Of a DNA stretch of 64,000 bases, positions 6,250 through 33,010 are shown piece after piece. The translations under genes and the position numbers were made by a program. The notes under the pieces were generated by a model. That model was not told the origin of the DNA. It ran no database searches and saw only the letters and a program-made list of their open reading frames with translations. Positions within the stretch are counted from its first letter, which is position 1. Each line of letters begins with the position of its first letter. Origin of the DNA: Macrostomum lignano (taxonomy: Eukaryota); the NCBI GenBank assembly GCA_002269645.1, contig NIVC01001651.1, forward strand, positions 186,001 to 250,000, read 5' to 3'.

Positions 6250-8039
6250 AACTGGACTCCATCAAAATTCTCTCCGTGAAACTGGACTCCATCGAAATTC
6301 TCTCTGTCAAAAAGAATCAACTCTCAGGATTCATTGGTTAGGGTTAGGGTTAGAGCTATACACAGCAGCGTGTTGAAAGGGGCCAGTAAACAAATTGAAC
6401 AAATTTTATTAATTGAATGTACAACCAATTTCTTCGTCAGTCAGTATCAGTATTAGTTAAAGTTAACAAAAAATTGCGCAATCTAAATCAGCCATCCAAT
6501 CTGACAAACCCCCTTTCACTGTGCAGTGGCAGTTAGAAATTGAAACCCCCCAACTATTGGGGTGTCGGTTGAATCCCCATTGAACCCCAAAATGAGTACA
6601 CTCTACAGAACGTTTAAAGTATGGAAATATTTTTTCAAATGCTGTGCTTTTACTTTTCACATTTAAAGCAAACAAATTATATCCCCAAACTTAGCGTTGC
6701 AAGCTCTTTCCAGCAATTTAAGTCTCTCCTCTCAAAATTCAAATCTCGAGGAGCAGTTAGTGTTTGAAATTTCCCGATTTAAAGCATTGAAGTATAGCGT
6801 GTACATTCACCTGCCTGCTACTGCTAGCAGTAAGAGGCTCGCAAGTTTATTCATTGAGTTTCACTGCCCAGCTAATACACAGCCTTTTGAAAGACGCTGA
6901 TAATAAAACCTAATTGAATCTCGACACAGTCTTATCTATCTGTTTACACTGTACATTGCTATGTACACTCAGCCCAAACCAACCCCCTCCCCTTATTCCG
7001 TGGGAATCATTAAATTTTACTGCACCCCCAACATGCAGGGGTTTTATTAGCATTGAACCCAGAACACGCGTCACCCACCCCTCCAATACACAGCGGCCCG
7101 CGGGGGGAGGTTAGGGAGGTTGTTTTTACAATTATGCCACGACCCCTCCAGTGAAGAGGCAAAGTGGCCAAAGAAGGTTAAGAAAACAGTTTTTGTTTTT
7201 TTTAACGGACTTGACTTTTAATTTTTCAACATTAAAATAGCCTATTTGTTGCATAGGAAAATTCTGCATTGATATGTATAAGTCCCAAATTTGAGTTGCC
7301 AGCCATCTATGAGGAGATACGCGTTAAACCCAGATGGTCGATTGATTGATTGACCCATTTAGCTTTAGATATAAGATAGCCTAGCAAAGCTTTCATTGGC
7401 TCAGCTTTCTTGATTCTAGTATTTAAGACTTATGGAATGGCTATAGTGAGCTTGCCACTTAGGTATGCTATGCTATCCCATCCAGCTATTCTAAATGTCT
7501 CTATTCTATTATTGTATTATATTCTATCATTATTTAGGACTAAACTTATTATATTAGACTATAATATAACCTAAATAAAATATACTTTAATAGACCTAAG
7601 CCAACTAGGTGTAAGACCAAGATGGCCACACACCAAGATGGCCACAGCTGGGGTGGGGGTCACGGAAAATGACAGCTGGTTTACTATTGGATAGCTTTGG
7701 GTGGGGAGATGTGGGGTTGCAATGGGGCGGTTTAGACAGGCAGTCAAAATTTTATTAGCATATTTCAGGGCTAAAGACAAAAATGGTTACGAGTCTTAAT
7801 TTCCTACTTATAGTAGGGCCCTAAGAGGTAAATGTATTTCGCATTAAACAAATCTCTTCTTCATATAAAATCTGGTGTAGCTTTTTTCCATTTCTCTTAT
7901 TGGTCGAGACTAATTTACTTGTTCAAAGGGATAAAAACTGGGTAAATTTCATGCCCTGTTCAAAATTCATCTGTCTCATTCACTGACAGCAGTCTAAGCA
8001 TTTAGATATAAAATGGCTGGCGCATATCCATGTGTGGTC

Positions 8040-8934
8040 ACTACTATATGAACCCGTATCCGTTGATTTTGGAGGGGGGTGGGTGTCAACCCTCCTCGCC
8101 TCTCATTGGCTGGCGCCCCGATCACTAGGTGATCGATACCCGTATCGATATCGGCGCTCGGCGCGCGCGCGCCGCAGGCGCGTGGCGCCAAGCGCCGTCC
8201 AGCCGCAGGCGACCCTCCCGAGCCACCGGCGACCCTCCCCAGCCGCAGGCGCACCTACCGATATGTATGCTCACCCTACCGACATGTACCCCGATATGTA
8301 CACCCTCCCGAGCCGCAGGCGCACCCTCCCGAGCCGTAGGCGCCCATGCCGCAGACGCCCATGCCGCAGGCACCCCGAGTGTACACTCTACCGAGCCGCA
8401 GGCACCCCGAGTGTACACTCTACCGAGCCAAAGGTACACTCTACCACTCTCCCGATATGTACGATATGTAGTCAACGATATTAGGCTAGTGAAAACTACT
8501 TATAGTAGGTGAAATTGAGTATATTTACATAAAAATGTAGATAAAACATATTGGTAGGTGAATAATGACGCATATTGCATATTAAAATGTACATATTGGA
8601 GCATATGAGCAGCAAAAACACACAATGTAGGTGCATGGGCAGAAATAGACAAAGCAGGTACTGTAGGCGCTACATAGGTGGAAATACACACAGCAGGTTT
8701 ACAAAGTGTACTTTCGATACATATCGGATTAATGTATAAAGCAGGTTTACAAGGCATGCATAAGGTGTAGTTGTATAATACAGGCACGCATGTATAATCA
8801 GATTATAGGCAAACGCCCAGGTGCAACAGACGCGTAAATAATGTCACACCGACTAAAGAGTAAATATTGTCTAACCCGCAGGTGCATAAAAATTTTAAAC
8901 AAAAGCGGTTCGGGGAAATCCCAAAAGGGAGGTT
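8040..8934 (+). repeat. Left terminal inverted repeat (895 bp)
   Basis: Starts ACTACTATATGAACCCG and is the reverse complement of 16555-17449. The mirrored ORF translations of 95, 116 and 127 aa are identical. Confidence 0.95.
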
Positions 8935-9291
8935 CACGGCCTAATGACCCGATATACTTTCAACACAATTAAACCCACAAGTGGGCTAGAAAAATGGACA
9001 ACGTATTTCGATTGCGCTATCAGTACGCTAATCAGCGCAGCAAGTTCATGTCAGGAGTTCTACTCCAAGAGGCGGACCGCTGGGCCACAAACCGCCCCGA
9101 GGGAATAGGTGTCAAATGGGAGTTTTAACACTTGAGGGGATCCCGCTCAATGTACAGTGGAGGTGCCAAATGAGTAAGGACCCCTAAGTACAGTGCGGGC
9201 GTAAAACCATTTTCATCCCCACGAGTCAAGGGATCCCAAGTGGGCACATAGGGGAATCCCAGGCGTGCAAAGACAGATCCTTATCTTTCAC

Positions 9292-12200
9292 TCACTCCCG
9301 AAAGCCATACGGGCGGCTAGCGGCCCCATACACCCTCTTAGTCATTACGCGCTGGAAAGTCTTGTCCATCTCGAGGGTCCGGATTGTACAGCTAGCCTTA
9401 TCGCGCCTGAACTGGGCCTGGGGCAGGCGTACAGTCCCGCCGTGACGCAGAATTTCCTGCAGCTCGTCCTCGCGCTCGGAAATCTCGGGGTGACTCTGAT
9501 GCCCTTGCACTTGAGCACCGAGTACAGCGACCCGTCAGGCTTCTCCACCACGTACCGGTAGAGCTTGGGGCCTCCCGTGGTGAACTGTACCATGCGGCAG
9601 CCGCAGGTACCTCGTCAGTCCACTGCCCCAAACTCGAACCGCCCGGAGGCTCGTACTCGCCCGGAGAGCAGCGGTATACGACCCTGGGAGGAGGAGAAGG
9701 ATAAAGTGTTAAGGGGAGAAAGAGAGACAGAGACAGTTGAAAAAATTACTCACGAATCAGTATCGGCGTAAATGACGCGGGTTCCTAGACCCTCCAGAGC
9801 CTCGTAGAGTCGCAGCCGGGCGTGGGAGGTGGTGAAAACGCCAATAGGTACATTAGCGTACTTGAACGCCCGCTCGCCAGCACCGCCAAATCGGGGCTTG
9901 TACTCGAGCATCATGAAGCTCTCCCCAATTGGCTCGCACGACTTGACCTTGATCGAGGGGTCGGTCAGGCGCTGCAGCCACGCCTCGTAGCTGTCCACAA
10001 TCTCTGTGGAGGTCAGGTCGTCGCGCTGGCAGAATTTGCCCCAGAGCCTGCAGGGAAAAATAAATTTTATGTAAGTAGAAAAACACGGCCCCCACTGCAA
10101 GTAGAAAAAACTTACGAGTTTAGAAAAATCTTGGCCACAAAGCGCAAGCCAGGATTCTCCTCCACCTTTTCCAGCCGGACGCCTTCGCGCTCGAAAAAGC
10201 TGGCCATGTAGGCAGCCTTGGCGTCCTCAGCCATCCCCGGCGAACCGCTAGACTCGGCTTTGAGCTTCAAAAAAGTGTTTACATAATCTGCAAACAGGCC
10301 CGTGCGAGTCTCGGTCCAATAGGCCAGGGCATGAACTGACTGCAGCTTGTAACCCAACTGCAGGGCTTTGTGGAGCTCTGGGGTCGACCACGTGCCGCGG
10401 AGCATTCTCTCAGCGTCAGTGTGTGTACACTCGCTGCTGCACTGGGTCTCCATGCAGACGCGGCAGAGGCCGAAAACCAACTTCTTGTTAATCTTGGCGG
10501 GCAGTAGCGGGATGTGGAGATTGGTTGGCGGCAGAATCGACACCTCGGCGATGCCAAAATACCGGGCCAGCTGCAGCTCATCCAGTAGATGAGGCTCGGG
10601 GTGGTGTACCGGGTGCCCGACCGGGTACTTGTCAAACTTGTTGACAGTCGGGTAGAGCGACACCTAGGGGATAAGGATAAGATAAACTCAAACGCATGTC
10701 AACTGTGTGTGTGTACAAGTGTACAAACTTACCACATCCCGATAGCGCAGCTCTACAGTCTCGGTGGCCTCGGCGTGCGGGACAAAAGCCTCGGTACGGC
10801 CGCCAAACAGGGCATCCTCCAGGCGAATAGGCTGCTGGACTGGCGCTCCCTCGTCCTGATAGTCGTGCTCCCACAGAACACGCACATTGTATGCAGTGGA
10901 GAGCAGCCGGGTGAAGCGCTCAGTCTCCTCATAAATTGCCCGCATTGGCTGGTTCTTGAGCGGGTGCAGCACGTCGCCGTTGGGGAAGCACTTGGGACAG
11001 CCATGGAAGAAACAGCCATGAAACTGCAGCACTGTCCTGGTCTCTGGGTCGAAGCCGTCGACCTTACGGCCCATGGCGAAAGCCTCGCCGCCAGAATCGG
11101 CTGTCCGCAACCGGCCGCCAAACTCGGTTGCATTTAAATGTGCCAGCCAGCACCGCGCCTTGTGCGACTGTACATCGGACCGGCGGGAAATCACCCCAAG
11201 AGTGTTGGGCTCCATAAACTTGGTGGTGAATACCGACATGGCCAAGCCCGCAATGGTGTTGGATTGAACAAATGCGTCCAGTCCGCAAATGTCCTTAATC
11301 AGGCGGGCATATTTCAGGCAGCCTTCCCGCAAAATTAACGTGTCCTGCAGGCAATAGTCCAGGTACGCCTTATTAAAATTAAACACCTGTCCTCCTGCTT
11401 GGCCAGCCAGTCGGCGATGGAGTCATGCTGCTTATTCTTCTTCCCGCCGTACATATCAATTGAGCAGTAGGGACCGACGTACCCCCAATTTTGAGGCTGA
11501 TTGAAACGTGCGGGAAATCTCCTTTGGTCAGTTGGGTGCCCAAACCAAGCGCCTTTGGGAATTGCGCCAGACCAATAGGGATGAAATTGAGGCTGTCCTT
11601 GAAGGTGATCTTGTCGCACTTCATGTACATTAGGCGGCTGTTCTGGAAGATCACCTGCGGCTTCTTCTTGGCCAGTCCGTTGAGTAGGGCGCCGAGCAGG
11701 AGGAATGCGTCATACGCAGAGCCATTGTGCGCAATAGCAATTGCCCCCTGCTTGAACACACTAGTCAGCCAGCAGTAAAATGCATCGATAGAGTGCGGCC
11801 CGACAGATACAAACTCTCGCATCCCACAGGCACAGTCATTGTGCGAGACACAGCTCGTGAAATCCAGCGCCAGATTGCGTCCCGCAATGCAATTGGCTGA
11901 GCTGTGTAGTCCCCCGCACGCGCTGCAGCGGGGCCTGGGGAAGAGTTTGGGACACGCCTCGCAGGAGGTGGCAGCCGTAACCAAGTGTACCCGGTGCTGC
12001 TTGCCAGAGTCCACGTACGTCTCGAAATCATAGTAAACATACGGGGCGCTAGACTCTTTGGCTTTGGGCGGGGTGACAAAGCACTCGTGGGTGGCAGTTT
12101 CGTCGTACTGCTTGCAGACTGGGCACTTGGCGTAACCACACTGATGCTCAGGGGGCTGGCCTACTTTTAGTTCTTCTAGATAGCCACACGTGCCGCAAAC

Positions 12201-14335
12201 GTGGACCGAATCACAGCGCGATCTGCCGGCCTTATTCTTGCGCTTGTGATTTTCTAGGCACTGAGCATTATAGCAATTTAGCCCGCAATCATGGCATCTT
12301 ACATATGCGCGGTTTGCCTTACAGTTGGAGCCCGGAGTCTTGCATGTACTGCAGGCATCAGCGCACTTGTGCTTGGCGGGTTCGCTATCATAGGCCATCT
12401 CGCACTTGGGGCAGTAGTGGTGGCTGCCGAAAAACGCAGGCAGCTTGGTAACCACATTAAAGTGCTGCTCGACCAGGTGTAGGTGCAGAATCTCGGTGCC
12501 AGGCAGGTTGAAGATGCACCTGTTGGCCTCCTCTGCGCGGTACACGCGTATACCAAAATCGTGCCCTGGATGCAGCCGGTTCAGGGCTCGGATCGCTTCG
12601 GGCAGTGCATCCACCCCGAAAGGACCGGCCTGCGAGACGGTTTGAAGAGTCTGTGTGGGGGGTAAAATATTTCTTTTAGTATTCCCTGATACTATGTAAA
12701 ATTCTTTTAGTATTCCATGATACTGCGTAAAAATTCTTATCAGAAAATATATCTTTTAGTATTCCACGATACTGTGTAAAAATTATTATCAGAAAATATT
12801 AGTATTCCATGATACTGTGTAAAAAATTATTATCAGTACACAACTTACCGTGTAGAGGCCAGCTTCGATTTGTAGCTCAGTCGCAAGCTTAGTCTGCTTG
12901 GACGAATTGGCCTTGATCGTGCGCCACACCTGCTCGCTGATGGACTTGGCCACGAATTGCAGGTAGGCGCAGGCCACGACCAGAGCGCGCAGCAGGCATC
13001 TCTTGTCCGAGTTGGTGATGCGGACATAGTGCCTGGAGAAGGCGTGCCGCTCTTCTAGATGCTTGTTCTCGAGAGCACATCCACCTCGAGGCACCCAGGC
13101 CTTTAGCAGACGGACAGAAAAGTTGCCTGACAATACAGTGGCATCCGACTGCACAATCTTGTCAATGTGCTTAAACAACAATTCAGCCGTCATGCGGGCT
13201 GCACGCACCGGGGGAGTGTGGGCCGCTTTGAGCATGTTGTCGCTCTCGAATTTCGCGGCCATAAAGTCATCACCAGCCAAATCTTGCTTGAAAACTTCGA
13301 GCATGTCAGCAAACACCTCCCGCAAATCTTCGGTGTTGGTAATACGCACCACATACTCGACACCCTTTGCCCTAAACTTGGGCAGGTCACGCTGATTATC
13401 CAGCCGGGCCGTAAAACCTGCATGGGGGAATGGGGGAGTGTGAGTCAGCCCGGGTCTGTGTGGGAAATGGGGGGCGGGATAACTCACCCGGTCCGGTAAC
13501 AGATTCCGGCTGTGTTGGCGGGACAAACGCGTCTGAAAAAACACAAGGAGATAAAAAACCAGAAGAATCTGTCATTTTCCTGGCCCCAGCGTGTTTCCCG
13601 CCCTAGCCCCAGCAATTTCTTAACAGAGTTTACTCTGCTGTCCCCGCAGCAACTCTCTGCAATTTCTTATCTGCACCCCCGCTGCAGCCTGTCGCAGCAG
13701 TCTTTGTTTACTCACCCCTGCAACTCTCTGTCGCAGCAATTTGCACCCCAGCTGCAGCCTGTCTGGGTAGCGCCCTATCTGCAGCCCCAGTCTGTCCCAG
13801 CAACTCTCTGCCCCCACCCGGCTGTAACTTGTCTAGCCTGCCCCAACGATTCTGCAGCAATTTCTTATCTGCCGCAGCACCCTAGCAACTGTCTGTTTTT
13901 GCAGCAATTTCTTATCAGCACACCCCTCCCTGTCTAGACAACACCCCACCCCAGTCTTTGTTTACTCACCCCTGCAACTCTCTGTCGCAGCAATTTGCAC
14001 CCCAGCTGCAGCCTGTCTGGACAACACCCCCCTAGCAGCAATTTCTTATCAGCACACACCCGGCTGAAACTTGTCTAGCCCTCCCCTGCAACTCTCTGTT
14101 ACAGACCCTGCCGCAGCACCCCACCCTAGCAACTCCAGTCTAGACCCCTGCAGCTGTCGCAGCAGTCTTTGTTGTTTACTCTGCGGTCCCACAGACCCTG
14201 CAGCTGCTGCTGCTGCTCAGCCCCTACCCCCACCCTAGCAACTACAGTCTAGACAGAAATTAATTAAAACTTACCATAAAGACGTTGCCTCTTGTCAGCC
14301 AGGAAAGCAGTTGCGGTGGCGCTGCGTTTAGCCAT
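9292..14335 (-). CDS. polB: Protein-primed family B DNA polymerase (pPolB), 7 predicted exons: 14335-14275, 13532-13488, 13417-12849, 12629-10733, 10663-10116, 10047-9754, 9683-9292; ~1,269 aa after correcting four 1-nt deletions
   Basis: Exonuclease motifs YYDFET, AHNGSAYD and YCLQD; GGRTE; pol motifs DV|VSLYP, KIFLNS|LWGKF and YADTDS|VVY; GGPKLY, KCKGI and a terminal KR..PYGF. GT-AG junctions have consistent phases. There is a Cys/His-rich N-terminal region and a VSR-like insert (VDGFD...FHGCFFHGCPKC). Confidence 0.93.
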
Positions 14336-14523
14336 TTTGCAAACAGAGAGCGTGAGAGAGCGAGCGGAGAGAAGGATTATCTCTCTACCCTGGCTCTGGG
14401 GGTCTGTATATATACTAAAAAATCTGCTCAGCTCGCCTGTTATTGGATAAATCGCCAAAAACCAACCAAAATCATCAAAAATCACCCCCAAAATCATCAC
14501 CCACCCCACCCTCCATCCGGGGG

Positions 14524-14530
14524 TATATAA
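14524..14530 (+). promoter_or_regulatory. TATA box in the divergent promoter between pPolB and the PC4-like gene
   Basis: TATATAA ~50 nt upstream of ATG 14577. A TATATATA run at ~14407-14414 could serve the pPolB gene (ATG 14335) on the opposite strand. Confidence 0.5.
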
Positions 14531-14576
14531 GGCGCTGCACGGCTGTCAGAGAGCTCTCTGCTGCTGCTGCTAAATC

Positions 14577-15110
14577 ATGTCTTCTATCTCTCTATACGAA
14601 AACTTTGTGGCGCGGAAGCCCACATTTGAAACTGAACACAACTTGATTGAAATTCGGCGTCTCTACACCAACGAGGCTGGAGTGTGGAAGGACGGCTTCC
14701 CTGCAATCTACTTGGCCGAGCCAGAGTGGAAGAAGCTCGAAGCTGCGCGCCCTGACCTGGAGGCTGCTGCCCGCCTTCACGTGAACAAGCGGGTCCTGTT
14801 GGGCAATTTCAAGGCAGTTGAAGCTTCGCGAGGGAGGATCCGTTTGCTGCGCAATTGGCTCAATCAGGACCCAAAGTTTAATTGGCGCTACACGATCGAA
14901 TTCACGCCTGAACTGTGGCGCCGGATGTTTGCCGCCCGTTTGGACAAGCTCTTCAAGCCGGCACCTGAGGCACCCCCTCCAGCCAAGCGAGTCAAGACAG
15001 ACACGCCTCCGGTAGCCGGGACTGAGGTGGATGTTCTTCAGCTCATGGGTCTCAAACCCTACCAATCTCCACCCTGGGAAAATCTGTTTAACGAGGGTTG
15101 GGACTGCTAG
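14577..15110 (+). CDS. Tandem PC4-like (Sub1/PC4 fold) ssDNA-binding protein, 177 aa
   Basis: FV..FE..IEIRRLYTNEAGVWKDGFPAIYLAEPEWKKL matches the PC4 pattern dIR.yy...G..kP..kGI.L..eqW..L. A second weaker repeat reads LGNFKAV...IRLLRNW...IEFTPELWRRM. Confidence 0.65.
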   Translation: MSSISLYENFVARKPTFETEHNLIEIRRLYTNEAGVWKDGFPAIYLAEPEWKKLEAARPDLEAAARLHVNKRVLLGNFKAVEASRGRIRLLRNWLNQDPKFNWRYTIEFTPELWRRMFAARLDKLFKPAPEAPPPAKRVKTDTPPVAGTEVDVLQLMGLKPYQSPPWENLFNEGWDC

Positions 15111-15226
15111 TTTCCTATTGGTTCGCACCGCCTCACTCGATCCGTCTATATAATTAGTGTTTCCCCCCTCTCCAGAGAGTCAAACCCTATCTCAGCTCTA
15201 ATACTTTACTCTCTGTTGATTCTAGC

Positions 15227-16240
15227 ATGTCCCGCCGAGCTCTATCCAACCTCTGGGATAATAATCGCCCGACTGAAGAGTTAACCAGCCTCGACGGGGA
15301 TATCCCTGAACACATAGTTCCCCTAGGCACTGAAAACAACGGAAGTGATAATTGGGAGGCTGATCAATATCTAGCTTGGGCTATGTCCTATGATAGCGAC
15401 ACCGAGTCTGAAGTTTTTGACCTCCCGCTGCTGGCTATCGGCGGGGTTGTGAACGGTGCCCCTGCTGCTACTGCCTCCGATTTGACTACCGCCTCAGCCG
15501 CCCTCTTTGACGTCTCTGTTGAGGAGCTGACCACAACCGGCCCTGCCTCTGCTGCGCCCGTCTCTGCTGCTGCCGCCTCTACTACGCCCGTCTCTGCTGC
15601 TGCTTCAACTACCTCCCACCGGGCCTCAATATCATCAGCCGCTACGCTCCTTCTCTTCGACGACGAGGACGAGGATATGTCTGAGGAGATCGCCGTGGTT
15701 CGTGAGCGCTTTCCTCGCATTGTGGCCTCATTTTTCCGCGGGACATTGACTGGCTGAGGTCTCGGCATCCTGGCGGGCTGCCCTCCCAAGCTACCTTTGT
15801 CAGAGCCTTTAATCGGGTTCTTGATACTTTGGTTGCGAGGGGTGCCGGCCTACGGGAGGTGTTGGAGGCTGAGACTCTGCACCAGGACTGGTTGATGGGG
15901 CGCAATTCGTATGCCCCCGACTCTGAGGCGTACCTGGCCGGTCCGGGAGCGCGGCCAACTGCGTGGGATGAGCCCGTCGCATGGCCCTCCAACTGGGAGG
16001 AGCACCTTTCGTTGGTGCGCTATACAGCGTCTCTACGTCTGTGGCGGCTGGAGGACGATTTAGATTTGGTAAGATATTACATTATATACACAACTCATCT
16101 AATCATATACCTTGCATATATTCTATCTACATTGACTGTTATAATTTCCACATTGCCAGTCATCCGACTACTGCTTCGAGAGCGTGGAGGAAGAGGCCGC
16201 GTACGAGACAGCCCTGAGGGAGCGTATGGAGATTGACTGA
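15227..16240 (+). CDS. Acidic, Ala-rich orphan protein (~307 aa; exons 15227-16068 and 16160-16240; one 1-nt deletion near 15735)
   Basis: ORF 15227-15757 joins the frame of ORF 15829 by a -1 shift (SFF-PRDIDWLRSRHPGG). A GTAAG...CCAG intron (16069-16159) gives a phase-0 continuation SSDYCFESVEEEAAYETALRERMEID*. Confidence 0.6.
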
Positions 16241-16554
16241 TAAGGGTATTTCTCTTTGTACGCGGTTTGGGGAACCCAACACTGTACACTGGGTAGGTTA
16301 GAATGGGCGCTAGCTGGGGGGCCTCTATGTGTGTATACACGGGGGTTAAAAGACCAATTCTGATAGCTCGCTCCTAGGGAGGAAATTGGCAGAGGGGCCG
16401 GCCCAAAAAACTGAAATGGGCTGGCCCCGGGCTCGAGTCCACCCACCTAAAATATGGAGGGTCATTACAACCTAATGACTCGAAATACTTTCAACGCAAT
16501 TGTACCTATAAGAGGGTTAGGGCGGCGGCGGCGGTGGCGAAAACGGGCGGCTAA

Positions 16555-17449
16555 AACCTCCCTTTTGGGATTTCCCCGAACCGCTTTTGTTTAAAATTTT
16601 TATGCACCTGCGGGTTAGACAATATTTACTCTTTAGTCGGTGTGACATTATTTACGCGTCTGTTGCACCTGGGCGTTTGCCTATAATCTGATTATACATG
16701 CGTGCCTGTATTATACAACTACACCTTATGCATGCCTTGTAAACCTGCTTTATACATTAATCCGATATGTATCGAAAGTACACTTTGTAAACCTGCTGTG
16801 TGTATTTCCACCTATGTAGCGCCTACAGTACCTGCTTTGTCTATTTCTGCCCATGCACCTACATTGTGTGTTTTTGCTGCTCATATGCTCCAATATGTAC
16901 ATTTTAATATGCAATATGCGTCATTATTCACCTACCAATATGTTTTATCTACATTTTTATGTAAATATACTCAATTTCACCTACTATAAGTAGTTTTCAC
17001 TAGCCTAATATCGTTGACTACATATCGTACATATCGGGAGAGTGGTAGAGTGTACCTTTGGCTCGGTAGAGTGTACACTCGGGGTGCCTGCGGCTCGGTA
17101 GAGTGTACACTCGGGGTGCCTGCGGCATGGGCGTCTGCGGCATGGGCGCCTACGGCTCGGGAGGGTGCGCCTGCGGCTCGGGAGGGTGTACATATCGGGG
17201 TACATGTCGGTAGGGTGAGCATACATATCGGTAGGTGCGCCTGCGGCTGGGGAGGGTCGCCGGTGGCTCGGGAGGGTCGCCTGCGGCTGGACGGCGCTTG
17301 GCGCCACGCGCCTGCGGCGCGCGCGCGCCGAGCGCCGATATCGATACGGGTATCGATCACCTAGTGATCGGGGCGCCAGCCAATGAGAGGCGAGGAGGGT
17401 TGACACCCACCCCCCTCCAAAATCAACGGATACGGGTTCATATAGTAGT
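16555..17449 (-). repeat. Right terminal inverted repeat (895 bp)
   Basis: Ends CATATAGTAGT, followed by TSD GTGGTC. Confidence 0.95.
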
Positions 17450-18119
17450 GTGGTCTGTCTGCAGCCAGTTTGCGATGGACAAGAAGCAATTGAGTGTTCT
17501 CAATGCTTGAATTGGCAGCACCGCATGTGATAGTCGCGTCACAATCGATCAGTATTCTGCAATGAGAAATGTCGGTGAGTTTTTCTGGCTTTGCAATCAA
17601 TGCAATAGACGGGCTCCTGCAGGTAACTTAGCAGTGTCTCAAGCTGCAGATGCTGCAGTGTTACATGTACAAGCCCCGAATTCTGGACCAGCGGCTGTTC
17701 CTCTGCCTGCTGAAAATCCAGAACCAGTGCATTTGATTCCGGCACAAGCAGAAAATTTTCTTTACCAGTATCCAGATTTCAATAACCCTGATCCAGCTCT
17801 GGAAGAATCCATTCAAATTCCTCCAGCAGAGCTTGCACCGCCCCGCAGCCCAACTCCCAAGCCCTTTGAGATTCTTACAGGTGCAGGATGCAGTCACGGA
17901 AAAGACCTTCTAGTGCAGTATGCCCAACGAGACCTTGGCCATCTGATGGATGAAAAAACGCGGCCAAATGGCAACACGTACTATCGCTGCATATACTGAT
18001 ACTGATACCCAAGTACTGATACCCAAGAGACGCAAGGCTTCAATCAAAGTCTGACAATTCTGAAATCTCGTCAAAGTAAGCCGAACCTCTAAATACATGT
18101 ACAGATACAAGTCTGATAC

Positions 18120-21023: not shown

Positions 21024-21150
21024 CCAAGACCTACGGCTAGGCCACCTGAGACAAATAAGAAACCACCAACAACAGCAACTGTACTTCATTTTACTTAGTC
21101 TAATTTCACTAACGAAATCTGTTTTCTCCGAGACTTGAAGCTACGTCATA

Positions 21151-23047
21151 CCACCCGACCAGCATGGATTTAATCGGTAGAAAAGGTAACGTTTTCTACG
21201 ATTAGATAGGGTAGATGGCATGTCGACTGCCAGCATAACATGCTTTCCTTCTGATTAAAAGCGGACTGTATATACTTGTATTGGGCAGTTATGGCGCGCA
21301 ATTCAAAAGCCTACGCACAACCAATATTATAATGGCTCGACATATTTAATTAGTATAGGGCATTGTGTTAGTATGTATGAATTCAAGACCTAGACTAATA
21401 AAGCATGAGTTTGTGTCTATAGAGTCGAAAACTTTGGAAATGTGTCGCCCTAGCTTGCACAAAAAGCCATGTATGACATGACTGAATGAAATTTAATTAG
21501 GAGGTTAATGATTGTAAAATAAACTAGCTACTTGGACCTCTTGACAATAAGGATGAAATGGTCCTGTTGCAGGCAGATATATATTTTAATTGGGCTTAAA
21601 AAAAAAGAAAAAGCTTGATGGCTAGCTAGCTAGGTGGCCTTGGCTCACCCAGTTATTGGCCTTATATTGGCCTTCTTATCAATATGTGGGCCATTTTGTA
21701 CTGCATTGTGCTTTAATCTACTTTGTTTTTCTTCTTTATTGCCAGGTATTTAGTATAATTTTTTAGCTCTTAGTTGTATTCTTTATTTTAATATCACTCT
21801 ATACTTGTACCATGAAAAGACACACAAAAGGCCTTGTCAATTTTAGGCCTATGATAGGTAGCTAGCTATGTTATTTTATTTTAGTAATAGGCCTATAGCT
21901 ATTAAGAGTAGGCCTACTAAATTATTAGTCTATAAAATGTATATGGTCTAAAATAGGCTAGCTATTTTAGACCCTATTATATTTTATGCTTCTTGTCTAA
22001 CAATCTAATAATTGTTGTAGGCCAATATTATGAAATGTATAGGCCTAGCTATAGAAAAAGAAAAAGAAGCCAATAACCTTCCTAATGAATAAATTAATTA
22101 ATATTAGTTCAGTTGTGTATTTACTTTATATTTATTGTCATATGAATTATATACTTATAAGACAGAGTTTTGATTTTTATAGATAGAGATTGCATTTAGC
22201 CTAGGCCTATCTACTCTAGTCTGCCTATCCTCTACCTATGTCTGTTCTCTCAATCATTATATTTTTACTTTTTCCCTCTCTTAATTCCTTTATATCATGC
22301 TTCTCAATTATCTCCCATCTTTGCCCCTCCCCAATTCCCTCCTATCCTGCCCACCCCCCAATTCCCTCCTATCCTGCCCACCCCCCAATTCCCTCCTATC
22401 CTGCCCACCCCCAATTCCCTCCTATCCTGCCCACCCCCCAATTCCCTCCTATCCTGCCCACCCCCAATTCCCTCCTATCCTGCCCACCCCCAATTCCCTC
22501 CTATCCTGCCCATCCCCCAATTCCCTCCTATCCTGCCCATCCCCCAATTCCCTCCTATCCTGCCCATCCCCCAATTTCCGCCATCCTGCCCCTCAATCTT
22601 TTCACCCTTGGGTTTTAAGCTATAAACCCAAGGCAATTCAAAATCTGGAAATGAATTTCAAATTGGAAAATTGAATTCAGCATTTCAAGCACCTTTCAAA
22701 AAGGCAAAACTATAGAGCTAGAAAATATGGAACTATTTAACTTCCTTAAGTTCAATAAGTTATAGTTGGATATTGCCAACTCTTTTCCAGGTGCCTCTAT
22801 CTAGCTAATGCTAACAAAAATGTTGCAAGGTGTACTTTAATATTATATTTGTTCTAGTAAGCAGTTTTTCTGTGTCTCCCATTCTACCCCACCTTTCCCT
22901 CCCGTTCTACCCTTCCATTCCTTCCCATTCTACCCCTCCATTCCCTCCCATTCTACCCCCACCATTCCCTCCCGTTCTACACTTCCATTCCCTCACATTC
23001 AACCCCCTCCATTCCCTCCCATTCTACCCTTCCATTCCTTCCCATTC
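21151..23047 (+). repeat. Left TIR of KDZ element (~1.9 kb, includes C-rich minisatellites)
   Basis: Reverse complement of ~30148-32020, with a few substitutions and small indels. Confidence 0.9.
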
Positions 23048-23316
23048 CCACCCCTCTGCTCTTTCCTACCCTCCTCCGCTCCACCCTCTCCCACCCAACT
23101 CTTTTCTACCTTCTCCTATACCTCCACCATCTCCGCCCTCTTCCGCCCTCCCATACACCCCTCGCCCTCTCCCACCCTTTCCCGCCTTTTTTGAAATCCC
23201 ACCACCCTCTCCCACACCCTTTCGCTCTCTCCCATCCTCTTCCGAAAGGCTGGAAGGGGGTTTTTCTGATTGCAATTTCGATTACATTTCCAGTGCTACT
23301 GCCATTTTCGAAAGCT

Positions 23317-25836
23317 ATGGGTCGCCATGGCAAAGTTCGTAAAAGAAGTACGTGGTCCATGTTTGTAAAGCTAAGAGGATCTAGTAAGTATTGCGTTTCT
23401 GTTATGGAGAAGTTTTGAAACTAGTGAGAAACATTTAATGTTTGTTTTATTTAAAATACTTAAATTTCGAAAATAGTGACGTGAGAATCAGCCTCCGGCT
23501 GCTAGAGCTGCTTCGAGGCTTCGTCTGCTGTCATACGATTCTGATCCTGGTTTGATTTAAAATACTTACATTTCTCATTCAGACGGATTTTCGAAAGACC
23601 GCATGGCCTTCTTGGCAAACGAATTTAAACAACTGACCTCTGAGGACAAGGCCGTCCTAGAAAATGCCGCCAAGGAGGCGAAGCAGCAGTGCCTATCGCG
23701 TTGTCCATCAAGCCTTGAGCTGGAAGAAATGGTAATCACAGATAGCGACTGGTATGGTAATCGTCCCGGAAATATGGTGAATTTTCTATCAGAAATCGAA
23801 GTTATAGATATGTGATCCAGTGAGGTGGCAGTCGTACTCTCACTGGTTATGATATGACCGCTGATTCGCAGTTTTCAACAATTGTATAGCTAGATTGAGT
23901 CCCGGCTCATAACCGTTCTTGTTACATATCCCAATTCTATCCCAAAGCTAAAAATAAGATCCGAGCTGCATTATCCCAATTTGGCCTGCGTAGATAAACA
24001 ATCCTTCAATATTTAGCTCAATGTCGCACTCAAATTGCACACACATAAATGCGTACATTAGTAAACAGTTTGCTGTTCCCCCCCCCCTCAATAATAACTT
24101 ATTACGCACATACTACCCCAGGCCCGTGCAATGTTTTATAGCCAGGATCTGCTGAGCATCTGTAAATCTGCTTATTCACTTCCAGGCACGAGGACTGTAT
24201 GCTGATTACCACATCTTACTGATAGTCAAGAAGCGCAACGGCTCAAGCTTTCGCACTTGTGCGTCTCCCGAAGTCGCAGGACTTCTAAACGAAAATTCTG
24301 GACTTTTACAAGTAGGTCAAAAATTTCCAGAGTTGTTTACGGACCTTTATCTACAGATTCTCCAATTATCTACGATGGGTACAATTCTTTCTTTTTATTA
24401 CACGAGGGTAACCTGGCGCAACGCCTTGGGTGACATCATTTCAAAGCCAGCACGGAGGCAATTCCGCCCATTCCGCTGACTTTGAGCACACACACGGATA
24501 CGTACGCAGGTGCACACTCACATAGAGGTATACATCTGCTCTGACTTTCTCGTCGGCAGGCATTTTTACCACTGCCTGGGGGTTGGCCTAGTGGCATAAA
24601 TCGCACAAGCCCCAGGTGGCCATCCGCCCCACAAATTAATGTACTGCGCTGCAGAATTGAGCCCAAGAATTATTCGTGGCAGTCCGATTCGTTACCGCTC
24701 GGCTACTTAGTCCCCTAAGATATTATAAAATTCTAATATTTCTAAGGTGCACATTATAAAATCCATCTATTTAGCAATGCATATGTTTGCAGCATTACGT
24801 ATATTTTTCGCTTGCTTCTTCGTTACAGAAGTTCGACTTACTGAGTGCTGGCCTGGCAGAGCCTTCCACTCGAAAACCCACGGTTGAGCACATGCGCAAA
24901 GAGGTTCGGGCATCAGTTCGCATGGCATATGGTGAGATGACAATATTGCTTACTTGTTGGCTTGTGTATTTTCCACTTCGCTTGTTTAATTCAGCTGTGA
25001 CTCAAGGCTATAGTGGAAGCGCGAGCTCTCTAAAATCTGGCGGACCATTTTCATCAGTTGCTTTTGTGGCTATTTTGTGATCGCAATCAGTTTGTTCGAA
25101 TCCATATTACAGGCTTCATCTATTACATTCTTTCTCAGCTCAAGCCGGAATGGGCGCCAAGCTGAATTTTAAAAACCTACGTGGCGCATTCTTCCCGAGC
25201 ATTAAAAATCCTGCGGAGATGAACGCCGCAGAGCTTCGGGAGGCGTATGAATCGCGTGGCCACTTACGATTCATCCGCATCGAGTCTGAGAATCGGCCTC
25301 CGGCTGCTAGTGCTGCTTCGAGGCCTCACACGCTGTCATCCGATCCTAATCCTGCGTCCGACCTGTGGCCGGTCGGTGCTGCTGCCCAGGCCTTCAGGCT
25401 CAGCTCGGACTCGGCCGGTGGATCTGCGGTCATCGTCGGTCGCGGCTCGGCCGGCGGATCTGCGGTCGTCGTCGGTCGCGGCTCGGCCGGCGGATCTGCG
25501 GTCATCGTCGGTCGCGGCTCGGCCGGCGGATCTGCCGTCGTCGGCGGTCGTGGCCCGGCCGGCGGATCTGCGGTCGTCGGCGGTCGCGGCTCGGCCGGCG
25601 GATCTGCGGTCGTCGTCGGTCGCGGCTCGGCCGGCGGATCTGCGGTCGTCGTCGGTCGCGGCTCGGCCGGCGGATCTGCGGTCGTCGTCGGTCGCGGCTC
25701 GGCCGGCGGATCTGCGGTCGTCGTCGGTCGCGGCTCGGCCGGCGGATCTGCGGTCGTCGTCGGTCGCGGCTCGGCCGGCGGCTTCGCTACCGTGACTGGC
25801 GTTGGCAGCTCCAGCGAGGGGACTATGCTGTACTAA
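23317..25836 (+). CDS. Multi-exon HMG-box-like accessory gene inside the KDZ element (internal exons only partly resolved)
   Basis: Exon 23317-23383 spliced (phase 1) to 23583 gives KVRKRSTWSMFVKLRGSNGFSKDRMAFLANEFKQLTSEDKAVLENAAKEAK, an HMG-box pattern. Further likely exons lie at ~24200-24311, ~24830-24930 and 25139-25836. Confidence 0.55.
25410..25782 (+). repeat. 36-bp GC-rich tandem repeat, ~10 copies, in frame (SAGGSAVVVGRG)
   Basis: Visible in the DNA and in the ORF 25150-25836 translation. Confidence 0.95.
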
Positions 25837-26055
25837 AGTGCTGTTTTCTTCCTTATTTTTGTAACGGACTGAGATTAAAACAGGGTTGAAAGAACACGCA
25901 TTTTGCATTGCTGTCGTTTTTTTTTCGTGGCGTCCTGGAAGTTATTCGACTCCCTTTCGGTTTTAGGAAACTCAATGTCATTCCGATACTCTATGCAAAA
26001 TCCCTAGTACTTTTACATATATTTACATATAGTTCAATTTCTCAGCTCAGTATGT

Positions 26056-29000
26056 TTAGTGTTTTGCGCTTAGGAACTTCTGCGGACACATGAGCCTTTG
26101 GTGTTTCTTCCACGGCTGCACAGTCAGTGGAAAGGGCCTGGCGGTGTGGCTGTCGAGGCGTGAGTAAATTGACGACGACGGATCTCCCAGATCTTTCAGC
26201 GAATACTGACAGCCACTAGATTCACGCAGCTCACTCATCTCCTTACATAGTACATCTGCCTTGCGAGTGAGCAGTCGAGCCTGGTGCGACCCTGGATGTG
26301 ATAGAATAGGGTAATTAAGTTTTTAAAAGTTAAAGTTTTAAGCGAAAAAGTTTTTTATACAAGGCAATTAAAATACACACCAACTAAGAAGAGCGAATAA
26401 GAAGGCAATGCCGACTGTACCTCTCGTGAAATCAAATTTTAATATTTATGCGACATACCTATGCAGCGGTTCAATTCGCTTAACGTCCGCCGCTTCTCAA
26501 CTGCAAGTCGACGCATTTTTGAAGCCAATCGCCAGTACGCAGAAGCGCCGCACGAGCGTCTTCGCGGAGCCATTGCTGACCTAGATGCACCAATTGCTCA
26601 GTGGTGAAACCTAAAGTTTTTAATAACATAATAATTGGAACCTAGATAATTTTACATATTTGTAAAATATCATATCCAGTACGTGAATATTGCCGAATAT
26701 TGCAATTTTTAACTAACCCGACTGTGAAACGATTCCCTGAATTTCACGGACGTGCTGATCGATTAGCTTCTCTTTTTTCGAAATTAGTTTTTCCCTGGAT
26801 TTCAGCCATGAATCTGAAAAGGAAAGGCAAGAACCAGTAAAATACAAAAGGCAACTTTTCAACAACGCCAGTAATGAATGGGTTTTCAGTTTCACAGTGA
26901 TTTCGCAGGGAGCCAATTAAGTCATGTCCAATCACACCACCAACAGACAATTATCTCAACAAAAAATTGGACTATTATCTCAGCAAATAATTATATAAGT
27001 TAACATTTTCAGCTATTATATAGTGCACATGAGATGTGACCTATTAAATAGAATGCTAACCAGGATCCAGACGCAGGTGGTACATTCCGATGATATGCGC
27101 GATAAGCCTGGTGCGCCTATCAATGCGCATCTCCTTCAGGATGCGCCCGTATGGGCGCAAGAGCGAGAAAATGCGTTCGCAGATTTCTCCGTCAGTGATA
27201 CCGGTACCAGGCGTAACGCGGATAGAGTTGTTAAGCTGGATCAAATAAATTTTAAGAAAATCGGTCTCAGGCTACTAGTCTTACTTAAGTGAACCAGCTG
27301 CAGCAACACAATAAATTTCTAATTCCTTTGAATTTAAAACTTCAAAAATACTTAAAACACGCACCGCTCTCCAGGAGTGCGCACGTCAGAGCAAGCCCAA
27401 ATAAATCCGTGACGACATGCAATAATAAAAAAGCCTTTGACGTCCAGCTTGGAGGATGTGCGACAGACATAAGATGTTTCTCCTGCAGTCCAATTCGGGC
27501 AGGCGCCATGAGCAGGCGCAATGACTTGACCAGAAAGGTCAACACGCGCAAACGGGAACGGAATTTCTCCGTCTAGGGGCTCATCGCTAACGTCAGCACC
27601 TGCAGCAGATCTACGCCTCCATCCCATAAGAGCGTCGCCGTGCAAGATAGGTCCCTGTCGAAAACAAGTTTATGGCGTGAATTTGTACTACATTCATCTT
27701 CCTTACCCGCTACATGTGTTTTCGTCTTGTCTTACCACTTCACTAGATCGGCAAAGCGTACACTCGGAAGGAAATCTTGCGACTTGAGCTAAAAAAGCTC
27801 TATACAAGCCGATGGTGTTGTTGCGCAGAAGATCGCTGTACAAATCTCGCTGCGGTGTGTAGTTTAAGAGAAGTGTTATAAGGATTAAAAGAGTATAAGA
27901 CCAGAAAATATAGACAACTTAAAAGAAAGACTAGTGTTTTATGTCTTGCGTCAATAACTGCCCTATTTACACCTTATTTTCTTGTCTCGCAGTCAGCTTT
28001 AATAAATGATGGATGAAGGAAAAATAAGAAACTCACCCCCGAGGCGCTGCCCAAAACAAATTCTTCTATCTCCAACGACGGCACAAGCCTTTGACAGCGA
28101 TGTGATTCCATTGACCATGATGGAATCCAACGTATTTAATAGTTCGAACGACACGAAGGTCAAGGTGCTGTCGGAAGTTGGAAAATAGTTTAGGGCAACC
28201 ATGAATTCTGAGCAATGCTGAGTATCGCATGCGTCGATCACAGTCGAATGGTAACCTGCAAAAGGAGAAGCAGAAGAAAACAACCATCTACGTACATCAC
28301 TAAGTTTTTTATGTTCAATAATCAGCCCACGTGCTTATGAGCAGAGCGTATAAAATGATACAAATAATCTGAATCCATAAAAAAAACATATCTCAAATGA
28401 GCACCCCAGCGCTAAAATTATGTTACCCATATTTAATAAGGAAATCTAATTATTAACAGCCTAGGAATAGAGACAGAATGAATATATCGTGTAACAACGA
28501 ACGAGACTTTCCTCCATAAGCATCCAAAAGTTGCACTTTTAAGGATGAGCCTGGAAAGCAGCCACACTTAAACTTGGGAGGCAGGTCGAGAAGCTCACCA
28601 TTCTAAAAAGCAGAGTTAGGATTGGATGAGTAGAGATAGTGATTTGTGGGCGTGGATTGAAGGGATTGGGGAATATATAGGAATAGAAGGAATAAATAAG
28701 GGTGGATGGAAGTAATTCAGAGATTAGTCACAACGTCTTTAACACATTTAACTGACATTTAATTTGGACAGTAAAAACATAAAAAACGCCGCACATGCAT
28801 TACCTGGAACATAGAATGCACGAGACCTTTATGGCGACTAGCGGCACATTTTGTGCAGAAGAAGGCTGCACATTGTGGGCAGTATATCGAGCCTAGGCTC
28901 GTACACTCAGCGCAAGTACCGATCTCGACAGCCCTTAAGAAGGCTGCGAGAATTCCTGGCCTGGTACTAGCCCTGACATCTTCCCAGTCAGAAGGCTCTC

Positions 29001-29170
29001 CGTTAGCGTGGCTGCTATCTGCCAATGGAACGGGCTCATCTTGGACAATGCTGTCCAGTACCTGAGTAGCAGTCAGAGTCTTTTTCAGCTCTTGATTCTT
29101 CCTAATGCCAGCCAAGAGTGCTGTGCGACCATTTATTCGCACTCGTAATTATTTCTTTGAGCGGCTCTGA
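26056..29170 (-). CDS. KDZ/Zisupton-like transposase, multi-exon, possibly defective
   Basis: CxC-like segment YFPTSDSTLTFVSFELLNTLD; LHGDALMGW; KLDVKGFFIIACRHG...PGE; PGTGITDGEICERIFSLL...EMRIDRR (KDZ CrH, GE and TDGE..ER motifs). The N-terminal C..C...C..C...FC..C...H is B-box-like. Confidence 0.72.
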
Positions 29171-29394
29171 AAGGAGTATATAGAAACATTGCAGAAAAAA
29201 TATATGCTAATTTATGCCCTAGTCTTTTAACCTTACGTAACCCAACACTATTGTCTATTAATAACTGACAGCCAACACATTCCGCATCTTTCTGCTCTCC
29301 AAGACTTCAACGAATACTCCCTCAGGATATATAATAGCTACTTAAAATATATACTAATGCAAAATATTATTAGCAATTAGCTATTCAGGAGACA

Positions 29395-30320
29395 GGGTAG
29401 AACAGGGTAGAATGGAAGGGTAGAATAGGAGGAAATGGAAGGGTAGAACGGGAGGGAATGGAGGGGGTAGAATGTGAGGGAATGGAAGGGTAGAATGGGA
29501 GGGAATGGAGGGGGTAGAATGTGAGGGAATGGAAGGGTAGAATGGGGGGGAATGGAGGGGGTAGAATGTGAGGGAATGGAAGGGTAGAATGGGAGGGAAT
29601 GGAGGGGGTAGAATGTGAGGGAATGGAAGGGTAGAATGGGAGGGAATGGAGGGGGTAGAATAGGAGGGAATGGAAGGGTAGAACGGGAGGGAATGGAAGG
29701 GTAGAACGGGAGGGAATGGAGGGGGTAGAATGTGAGGGAATGGAAGGGTAGAATGGGAGGGAATGGAAGGGTAGAATGGGAGGGAATGGAGGGGGTAGAA
29801 TGTGAGGGAATGGAAGGGTAGAATGGGAGGGAATGGAGGGGGTAGAATGTGAGGGAATGGAGGGGTAGAATGGGAAGGAATAGAAGGGTAGAATGGGAAG
29901 GAATGGAAGGGTAGAATGGGAAGGAATGGAGGGGGTAGAATGTGAGGGAATGGAAGGGTAGAATGGGAGGGAATGGAGGGGGTAGAATGTGAGGGAATGG
30001 AGGGGTAGAATGGGAAGGAATAGAAGGGTAGAATGGGAGGGAATGGAGGGGGTAGAATGTGAGGGAATGGAAGGGTAGAATGGGAGGGAATGGAGGGGGT
30101 AGAATGTGAGGGAATGGAGGGGTAGAATGGGAAGGAATAGAAGGGTAGAATGGGAAGGAATGGAAGGGTAGAATGGGAGGGAATGGAGGGGGTTGAATGT
30201 GAGGGAATGGAAGTGTAGAACGGGAGGGAATGGTGGGGGTAGAATGGGAGGGAATGGAGGAGTAGAATGGGAAGGAATGGAAGGGTAGAACGGGAGGGAA
30301 AGGTGGGGTAGAATGGGAGA
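29395..30320. repeat. G/A-rich minisatellite (GGGAGGGAATGGA[G/A]GGGTAGAAT-type units)
   Basis: Dozens of ~24-bp degenerate units, continuous with the inner end of the right TIR. Confidence 0.9.
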
Positions 30321-32020
30321 CACAGAAAAACTGCTTACTAGAACAAATATAATATTAAAGTACACCTTGCAACATTTTTGTTAGCATTAGCTAGATAGAG
30401 GCACCTGGAAAAGAGTTGGCAATATCCAACTAGGCCTATAACTTATTGAACTTAAGGAAGTTAAATAGTTCCATATTTTCTAGCTCTATAGTTTTGCCTT
30501 TTTGAAAGGTGCTTGAAATGCTGAATTCAATTTTCCAGTTTGAAATCCATTTCCAGATTTTGAATTGCCTTGGGTTTATAGCTTAAAACCCAAGGGTGAA
30601 AAGATTGAGGGGCAGGATGGCGGAAATTGGGGGATGGGCAGGATAGGAGGGAATTGGGGGATGGGCAGGATAGGGGGGAATTGGGGGGTGGGCAGGATAG
30701 GAGGGAATTGGGGGTGGGCAGGATAGGAGGGAATTGGGGGGTGGGCAGGATAGGAGGGAATTGGGGGTGGGCAGGATAGGAGGGAATTGGGGGTGGGCAG
30801 GATAGGAGGGAATTGGGGGGTGGGCAGGATAGGAGGGAATTGGGGAGGGGCAAAGATGGGAGATAATTGAGAAGCATGATATAAAGGAATTAAGAGAGGG
30901 AAAAAGTAAAAATATAATGATTGAGAGAACAGACATAGGTAGAGGATAGGCAGACTAGAGTAGATAGGCCTAGGCTAAATGCAATCTCTATCTATAAAAA
31001 TCAAAACTCTGTCTTATAAGTATATAATTCATATGACAATAAATATAAAGTAAATACACAACTGAACTAATATTAATTAATTTATTCATTAGGAAGGTTA
31101 TTGGCTTCTTTTTCTTTTTCTATAGCTAGGCCTATACATTTCATAATATTGGCCTACAACAATTATTAGATTGTTAGACAAGAAGCATAAAATATAATAG
31201 GGTCTAAAATAGCTAGCCTATTTTAGACCATATACATTTTATAGACTAATAATTTAGTAGGCCTACTCTTAATAGCTATAGGCCTATTACTAAAATAAAA
31301 TAACATAGCTAGCTACCTATCATAGGCCTAAAATTGACAAGGCCTTTTGTGTTTCTTTTCATGGTACAAGTATAGAGTGATATTAAAATAAAGAATACAA
31401 CTAAGAGCTAAAAAATTATACTAAATACCTGGCAATAAAGAAGAAAAACAAAGTAGATTAAAGCACAATGCAGTACAAAATGGCCCACATATTGATAAGA
31501 AGGCCAATATAAGGCCAATAACTGGGTGAGCCAAGGCCACCTAGCTAGCTAGCCATCAAGCTTTTTCTTTTTTTTAAGCCCAATTAAAATATATATCTGC
31601 CTGCAACAGGACCATTTCATCCTTATTGTCAAGAGGTCCAAGTAGCTAGTTTATTTTACAATCATTAACCTCCTAATTAAATTTCATTCAGTCATGTCAT
31701 ACATGGCTTTTTGTGCAAGCTAGGGCGACACATTTCCAAAGTTTTCGACTCTATAGACACAAACTGCTTTATTAGTCTAGGTCTTGAATTCATACATACT
31801 AACACAATGCCCTATACTAATTAAATATGTCGAGCCATTATAATATTGGTTGTGCGTAGGCTTTTGAATTGCGCGCCATAACTGCCCAATACAAGTATAT
31901 ACAGTCCGCTTTTAATCAGAAGGAAAGCATGTTATGCTGGCAGTCGACATGCCATCTACCCTATCTAATCGTAGAAAACGTTTACCTTTTCTACCGATTA
32001 AATCCATGCTGGTCGGGTGG
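30148..32020 (-). repeat. Right TIR of KDZ element
   Basis: Mirror of 21151-23047. Confidence 0.9.
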
Positions 32021-33010
32021 TCATACCCCACCCCAATCATAGCCAATAGGAAATGAGGAAATATATAGACCTACTCCTATCCAAGCAGCCATTCAGAGCT
32101 GTGGCCATCTTGGTGTGTGGCCATCTTGGTCATGCGCCGCCAACTAGACCTACTAACCAAGTATTTTTTACTCTATAATTTGGTTTTCATTTACTCTATA
32201 AACAAAGTCTAAATTAAGAATTTTTATGCTAGATATATGACCCTTACTAAATGAGTTAGTCTAAAAATGAAAGTCCTTAGCCTATATCTATAGGTCTAGT
32301 CTAGCCCTTCTATCCATTGTTATTTATCCACAGTTACATTAACAAAATAGGCCTAGCCTAGCTGTCTTGTCTTCTATATATGGGGCCTACTTTAAACAAT
32401 AGTTTATAGTTTTAAAAAAACTTTTTTAGGCTTAGCTACTTACTACAATTGTTTGCACTATAAAAATTTAAATTTGTTTAAACTTTTACTCCAATAAAAA
32501 AGTTAGTCCTTAAAAATAAAAACTATGTTTTATAGCATTTCATAGACATGACATAACTTTGGAATTCTTCTTTGTAGAGATCAACTTTATAAAGATCTTT
32601 TACTTTGTGGAATACCAACTTAAATTTTAGACTTTTGGTAATTTGGTATTTGCTACTTTGGCATTTAATTGTTTTAGTTGACCTAAGATTTTATTATATA
32701 TCTAAACAAGCTATTAAAACCCATATTTTGAACCCAAAGAATTCTAATCCTTAGAACTTTTGCATATTTGAATTTTTGTTTGTTTTTTAAAATTCCAAAG
32801 TCATTCTCAATATTTGAACAAAAACTTTTTAATATACTCATAGTTAGGATAAAGTAAACAAAAAGGAATTTATGTAAAATTAGAATGAGGCAAACATTAA
32901 TCTTGAACTGGCTAGGATTCTGCATAGAATATCAGGCAATGTAGCTATTTGACTCGAAACATGTACATTGGCAAAGTCTAACCTCTGCCTCTAATTCTTC
33001 TTACATTGCG

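Follow-up and report, generated by a model that had tools for sequence, protein, structure and literature searches.

Polintons (Mavericks) are usually described as intronless and as encoding both a polymerase and an integrase. They are typically 15-25 kb in length (a passage of PMC6431247), their core genes in vertebrates and in a nematode are described as intronless in sections of PMC8097293 and 10.1101/2022.07.12.499685, and the end motifs given for vertebrate members are (AGT)2, (AG)3 and (AC)3A (PMC8097293, same sections). Loss of morphogenesis genes is also known (PMC4028283, in part). Here we examine a gene for a DNA polymerase of family B that is primed by protein (pPolB), located at 9292-14335 on the reverse strand of a 64,000-nucleotide stretch of Macrostomum lignano DNA (assembly GCA_002269645.1, contig NIVC01001651.1, forward-strand positions 186,001 to 250,000; hereafter the window). 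This gene gives rise to transcripts from which all six introns are removed. It belongs to an element of 9,410 bp (8040-17449) in which three genes fill the space between the terminal inverted repeats (TIRs). The element family departs from Polintons in both introns and integrase, yet it is young, numerous, expressed and selected.

In common with Polintons, and with the 'Alpha adintovirus' class that has an OTU-pfam03175 PolB, the element has a PF03175 pPolB with a putative OTU-like motif, long TIRs, a short repeated end motif, a 6-bp target duplication and a PC4-like gene that also occurs in the resident full-size Polintons. Unlike them, it is 9.4 kb long, its ends are (ACT)2 rather than any of the motifs above, it contains six spliced introns, and no integrase, capsid, packaging ATPase or maturation protease was found in it. 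The element resembles the replication half of a Polinton, but its end motif and the lack of a match for integrase or morphogenesis genes set it outside the group. A VSR-like motif recalls the pPolB2/VSR polymerases of marine nematode and mollusc Polintons, a resemblance of motif only; those polymerases were gathered as integrase-linked, and the passages of that paper bearing on them mention no spliceosomal introns (10.1101/2023.08.22.554363). Introns inside integrated elements are also described for dinoflagellate Polinton-like proviruses, as mobile introners acquired mostly after integration by capsid-bearing elements (10.1101/2025.03.18.643946, in part), whereas the six introns here are mutually different and fixed in all compared copies. 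Cytoplasmic linear plasmids of the pGKL type and transpovirons are capsid-less replicons built from the Polinton replication module (PMC11161782, in part), but the present element is integrated with target duplications, needs the nuclear spliceosome and has no RNA polymerase or helicase match. Our literature search found no description of the element or of spliced animal pPolB genes; Repbase and supplements, which lay outside that search, may catalogue the element.

An earlier note on this locus, made from the sequence, had proposed six introns in pPolB with GT-AG ends, the last three lying within motifs A, B and C, and had called for a check of the junctions against transcripts. Four of 24 listed sequencing runs were compared, namely three probable RNA runs from three studies (X1, X2 and X4) and one probable DNA control (X27); the RNA or DNA status of the runs is a guess and not on record, and their contigs carry no strand, level or tissue information. 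Contigs of all three probable RNA runs lack intron 2 (13418-13487; 70 nt, phase 1), intron 5 (10048-10115; 68 nt, phase 2, within the motif-B sequence KxxxNSxWG) and intron 6 (9684-9753; 70 nt, phase 2, within DTDS of motif C). Two of the three runs lack intron 1 (13533-14274; 742 nt, phase 1, repetitive; X2 and X4) and intron 4 (10664-10732; 69 nt, phase 0, in motif A, with in-frame stops; X1 and X2). Intron 3 (12651-12848; phase 0, internally repetitive, 119-296 nt across 15 copies) is removed with its acceptor at 12651 in X2 and X4, and X1 has the same joint with mismatches adjoining it. All six introns are therefore skipped in contigs of these runs, and a single X1 contig spans the joints of introns 6, 5 and 4. 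The GT-AG ends and the placement of introns 4, 5 and 6 within the motifs are confirmed by both sequence and contigs, and five of the six proposed pairs of coordinates stand; the acceptor proposed for intron 3 at 12630 (219 nt) is ruled out by the probable RNA contigs, which give 198 nt.

No intron-skipping joint appeared among 15 of 27 rows of the probable DNA run X27. Contigs of the probable RNA runs also cover intron sequence, which could be DNA or pre-mRNA. It is difficult to account for so exact a loss of GT-AG segments except by splicing, which is accepted on this ground although the RNA labels are guessed. The donors are GT(A/G)AGT and the acceptors (C/T)AG at all six introns, and the hexamer GTRAGT occurs eight times on the coding strand of the gene: at the six donors, twice inside intron 1 and nowhere in the exons. 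An unspliced reading of pPolB is ruled out, as the introns hold stops or shift the frame and the probable RNA contigs skip them. With their GT-AG ends, removal from transcripts and free drift in length, these are introns of the U2 spliceosomal type. The motif-A intron has phase 0 and the motif-B and motif-C introns have phase 2, each within a Ser codon; these two codons adjoin known intein sites of archaeal and viral family B polymerases. Host-like size had been a further argument of the earlier note. The 70-nt intron of the host SARAF gene is confirmed (46005-46074, from sequence only), but the match in size is weak with a single host intron compared, and the mean intron length in M. lignano is given as 1.1-1.4 kb (a passage of PMC5730564).

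The spliced pPolB comprises ~1,270 aa, encoded on the reverse strand by exon 1 (14275-14335, with an inferred start codon), exon 2 (13488-13532, 45 nt), exon 3 (12849-13417, the N-terminal region), exon 4 (10733-12650), exon 5 (10116-10663, from SLYP of motif A to motif B), exon 6 (9754-10047, from the second half of motif B to motif C) and exon 7 (9292-9683). The description as a Polinton-type viral pPolB is upheld by matches to Pfam PF03175 on three open reading frame (ORF) pieces of the gene, and the exons align in order onto the contiguous relatives P0031 and P0036. A vOTU-like NxDxxC motif, recognised by eye in exon 3, also matches in 11 of 30 relatives; it is a candidate for the vOTU domain that in Polintons is fused to pPolB along with a terminal protein. 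Exon 4 ends with the start of motif A and contains what we take by eye to be a vOTU-like His region, a Cys-rich region, an exonuclease and a VSR-like insert; the VSR-like motif was matched in 6 of 30 relatives, and one segment of this exon (4c) had no PDB sequence match. The earlier note overlooked the surrounding element as well as the frameshifts of the window copy, in which exons 4 and 7 have no single open frame, with breaks near 11500 and 11390 in exon 4 and near 9600 and 9490 in exon 7. Among 15 other copies, 15, 15, 15 and 14 respectively depart from the window copy at these four sites, and ten of them carry additional exon indels. Since the TIRs are identical and substitutions few, the breaks hint at assembly error more than at decay.

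A genome search with exon 5 gives 127 matches, of which 45 are full-length at 94-100% identity and ~26 lie near 70%. Across 15 copies, intron sequence (1,238 nt) holds 74 distinct indels and exon sequence (3,806 nt) holds 24 (p=4e-26, with intron 3 taken at its earlier boundary of 219 nt), and substitutions at codon positions 1, 2 and 3 number 50, 31 and 180. The ratio of nonsynonymous to synonymous polymorphism (pN/pS) among pPolB copies is 0.149, with no stop codons. The acceptors are kept in all 15 copies while intron lengths drift through all three frames. Judged from these comparisons, pPolB is under purifying selection across ~45 near-identical copies. The target duplications differ at all eight pPolB loci tested.

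The closest proteins are M. lignano gene models at 93-96% identity, followed by coral and ENA proteins at no more than 48%; the nearest named relatives outside the host are the coral proteins, at 46-48%. A sister family of elements (9.5-9.7 kb, ACTAC ends, 6-bp duplications) is 52-74% identical in amino acid sequence. Across introns 3-6, the range compared, its members have GT-AG introns at the positions and in the phases of introns 3 (9 of 9), 4 (9 of 9), 5 (8 of 9) and 6 (8 of 8), with unrelated sequences and lengths of 60-87 nt. Alignment of the two families thus places the origin of four intron positions before their split. Comparison with related polymerases, a check proposed earlier, has in this way yielded four common sites, and the associated claim of long residence in the host gains support from sites shared at such divergence. 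A decayed, distant pPolB (G000:C234:57082-59400, ~36% identity) has no intron at motif A or B.

In 11 of 30 relatives from other sources the motif-B Asn is followed by an F-rich stretch that ends at a stop, and two others end one residue later (13 of 30 in total). Within 90% clusters the motif-B insert measures 25-27 residues where it is in frame, and the frame is shifted in other members. Motif A is contiguous in 25 of the 30. A wider search returned 150 proteins, 35 of them unclear; seven of the 115 classifiable proteins end at the motif-B site, one of the seven clustering with the host family, and most of the 18 rows scored as readthrough are pattern misses with an intact motif, only P0146 being kept. 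The proteins with a motif-B stop or readthrough are P0015-P0034, P0092, P0098, P0102, P0103, P0154, P0251, P0259 and P0267. Such a stop or insert is what a phase-2 intron at the site of intron 5 would leave in proteins from other hosts; no loci for these relatives were found in viral contigs or metagenome contigs. The approximately unbiased (AU) test rejects a single clade for the motif-B-intron proteins and a larger tree needs 5-9 changes, on a short alignment with long branches. Some contiguous rows could themselves come from transcripts or from gene models already spliced, and the motif-B intron may be a single ancient one or may have been gained repeatedly. The expectation that ORF-based callers fragment such genes is borne out by these relatives, for which the called pieces stop at motif B.

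The element begins with a left TIR of 895 bp (8040-8934, forward strand), which starts with ACTACTA followed by a 19-nt block that varies between copies, and closes with a right TIR (16555-17449, reverse strand) that matches the left at 100%. A 6-bp target-site duplication, GTGGTC, flanks it at 8034-8039 and 17450-17455. Duplications of 6 bp, different at each locus, were found by pattern at 12 of 13 loci and by inspection at the 13th, and sister copies have them too. Between pPolB and the other genes lies a divergent intergenic region (14336-14576) with a TATA-like box on each strand, a putative promoter. The first forward-strand gene, orfA (14577-15110), encodes 177 aa with a predicted tandem PC4/PUR fold. 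Its model has a pLDDT of 75 with a two-sequence alignment (36 for a single-sequence model), the top Foldseek match is human PC4 (probability 1.0, E 0.02), and comparison with Pur-alpha gives Z 9.6 and a root-mean-square deviation of 4.1 over 117 aligned residues. The product is 31% identical to that of a Pfam-PC4 gene adjoining the integrase in a full-size Polinton of the same genome, and from its modelled fold orfA is probably a single-stranded DNA-binding protein. The second, orfB (15228-16240, forward strand), is acidic and Ala/Thr-rich, with half of it low-complexity; it has no Pfam or Atlas match, its 91-nt intron (16069-16159) is spliced in run contigs, and the window copy is broken at ~15740. 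Integrase (rve), capsid, ATPase and protease had no match among the element ORFs, a search that an intron-split gene would escape.

The ends set this family apart. The ACTACTA end pattern occurs 239 times in the genome and the reversed control not at all; the element ends begin ACTACT and those of the two full-size Polinton families of the same genome with clearly readable ends AGTAGT. The 19-nt block after ACTACTA (8047-8065 and 17424-17442 in the window) is hypervariable, with 19 variants among 33 distinct ends and a mean identity of 0.53, versus 0.79 for the next 94 nt. Left and right blocks differ in three of eight pPolB copies, and one block is common to satellite and pPolB copies. Many ACTACTA end pairs enclose no pPolB, and all four such loci that were opened are satellites, three of them giant palindromes and one filled with retrotransposon sequence. 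The palindromic satellites (C303, C56 and C93) measure 8.4-9.4 kb, are nearly one palindrome each, have 6-bp duplications and match the pPolB element in nothing but their outer 200-400 nt; they appear to be non-coding, with no credible ORF and no credible Pfam match. Of 201 candidate loci 37 were scored, and about 20 of these match the satellite at 97-100%. By eye, none of 100 listed of the 239 ends evidently flanks a capsid or integrase match; the genome has 73 capsid matches and 117 Polinton-integrase matches, the latter mostly without stops. The retrotransposon-filled element with these ends (G000:C558:43450-53380) contains, by eye, two tandem copies resembling gag-pol of long terminal repeat retrotransposons, and an 11.3-kb fold-back derivative (G000:C1090), with 4.7-kb arms and a partial pPolB, resembles a snap-back defective genome.

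The reading we favour, and consider fairly probable, is that the element is a reduced Polinton replicon with the expression mode of a host gene and an integrase borrowed in trans. A Polinton derivative would have kept only its replication module as its expression became host-like. Host RNA polymerase II would read pPolB and orfA/orfB from the divergent promoter; spliced pPolB would replicate the excised linear DNA, with protein priming at its (ACT)2 ends, and orfA would coat the displaced single strands. Pairing of the ends would keep the TIRs alike, and template switching could produce fold-back derivatives. Insertion of the copies would fall to a retroviral-type integrase encoded outside the element, the resident full-size Polintons being the simplest source, and the palindromic satellites would make use of the (ACT)2 ends as well. 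Splicing of the introns is probably constitutive, and they may be tolerated or favoured as a help to expression. The steps of priming, strand displacement and fold-back error are modelled on the biology of protein-primed replicons (PMC11161782 and PMC8097293, in part). An integrase is placed in trans because none was found in the element and the genome has the Polinton-integrase matches noted above.

Several points weigh against this reading. Its main weakness is that the two resident Polinton families with clearly readable ends have AGTAGT, so that acceptance of ACTACT ends by their integrases is an assumption. The protein-primed linear episome is postulated by analogy, from the ends and the fold-back derivatives; the absence of integrase and capsid at the ends covers 100 of 239 of them, and intron-split genes would escape; and orfB, of unassigned family, could take part in integration. 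The transcript evidence comes from runs of guessed RNA status, whose contigs are uninformative on strand, level and tissue. Redundancy is reported for M. lignano assemblies (a passage of PMC5730564) and may inflate the copy counts, although the eight tested pPolB loci all have different target duplications.

The similar sizes of the element (9.4 kb), the sister family (9.5-9.7 kb) and satellites of unrelated interior (8.4-9.4 kb), together with shared ends on different interiors, could instead mean that the element is one part of a Polinton-like virus with a segmented genome, or a helper-packaged satellite, with a same-ended partner or a resident Polinton supplying integrase and capsid and the size of 8.4-9.7 kb set by a packaging limit. 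Bidnaviruses offer a precedent, having two segments with matching termini (PMC8502044, in part). We regard this as unlikely, given that every opened same-ended locus without pPolB (4 of 4) proved to be a satellite and that no capsid or integrase match was evident at the 100 of 239 ends listed. Distant orfA homologs, tried as a second segment, led to ordinary full-size Polintons.

That the motif introns act as a regulated switch between germline or stem cells and soma, as the earlier note had proposed, is distinctly improbable. Their placement is striking, with three of six introns in ~30 motif residues of ~1,270 (random P near 3e-4 by rough arithmetic), positions kept in the sister family and motif B affected in other lineages, and the probable RNA contigs do cover intron sequence. 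However, all donors are consensus GTRAGT, the introns vary freely in sequence and length and show no conserved stretch that looks regulatory, the intron coverage could be DNA or pre-mRNA, and control by retention needs no placement in motifs. The proposed control point is unsupported; any intron in a coding sequence, wherever placed, makes the protein splicing-dependent. Integration by another enzyme, either orfB as an unrecognised transposase or an unrelated host DDE transposase making 6-bp duplications, would suit the end motif unlike that of resident Polintons, the lack of a family for orfB and the young, numerous element family, but we give it very little credence, as a 6-bp duplication is the Polinton norm and Mavericks include alternative end motifs (both from sections of PMC8097293) and half of orfB is low-complexity.

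The reduced replicon may tentatively be extended to a system of three tiers, a possibility we hold with less confidence than the replicon itself. Full-size Polintons would be the helpers, the spliced pPolB replicon, lacking capsid and integrase and having its own ends, would depend on them, and palindromic satellites would be its parasites; the 19-nt block would mark a conflict over recognition of origin or integrase, and intron-split pPolBs would be widespread and hidden from ORF surveys. The reduced anatomy, unusual ends and satellites are of more interest than the proposed splicing switch. The spliced introns and the lack of capsid and integrase matches suggest a hidden, pared-down kind of element that long-ORF gene finding would miss, and the family suggests that surveys demanding long ORFs or linked integrases undercount such elements. 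The family offers a concrete case of transition from virus to transposon in a tractable laboratory animal with RNA interference, and a direct way to ask whether Polintons are protein-primed episomes and whether integrases act in trans.

Full-size Polintons of at least three families are present in this genome; those with both ends visible measure 16-18 kb, and the families have integrase, capsid, ATPase and polymerases of another class encoded by long ORFs. A PF04665 profile search of the genome gave no match and is uninformative, as one ATPase matches PF04665 as a protein. The window also contains a second inverted-repeat element at ~21140-32030, with arms of ~1.9 kb at 99% identity and interior fragments that include a CRHG motif and a zinc finger, which recall KDZ/Zisupton transposases.

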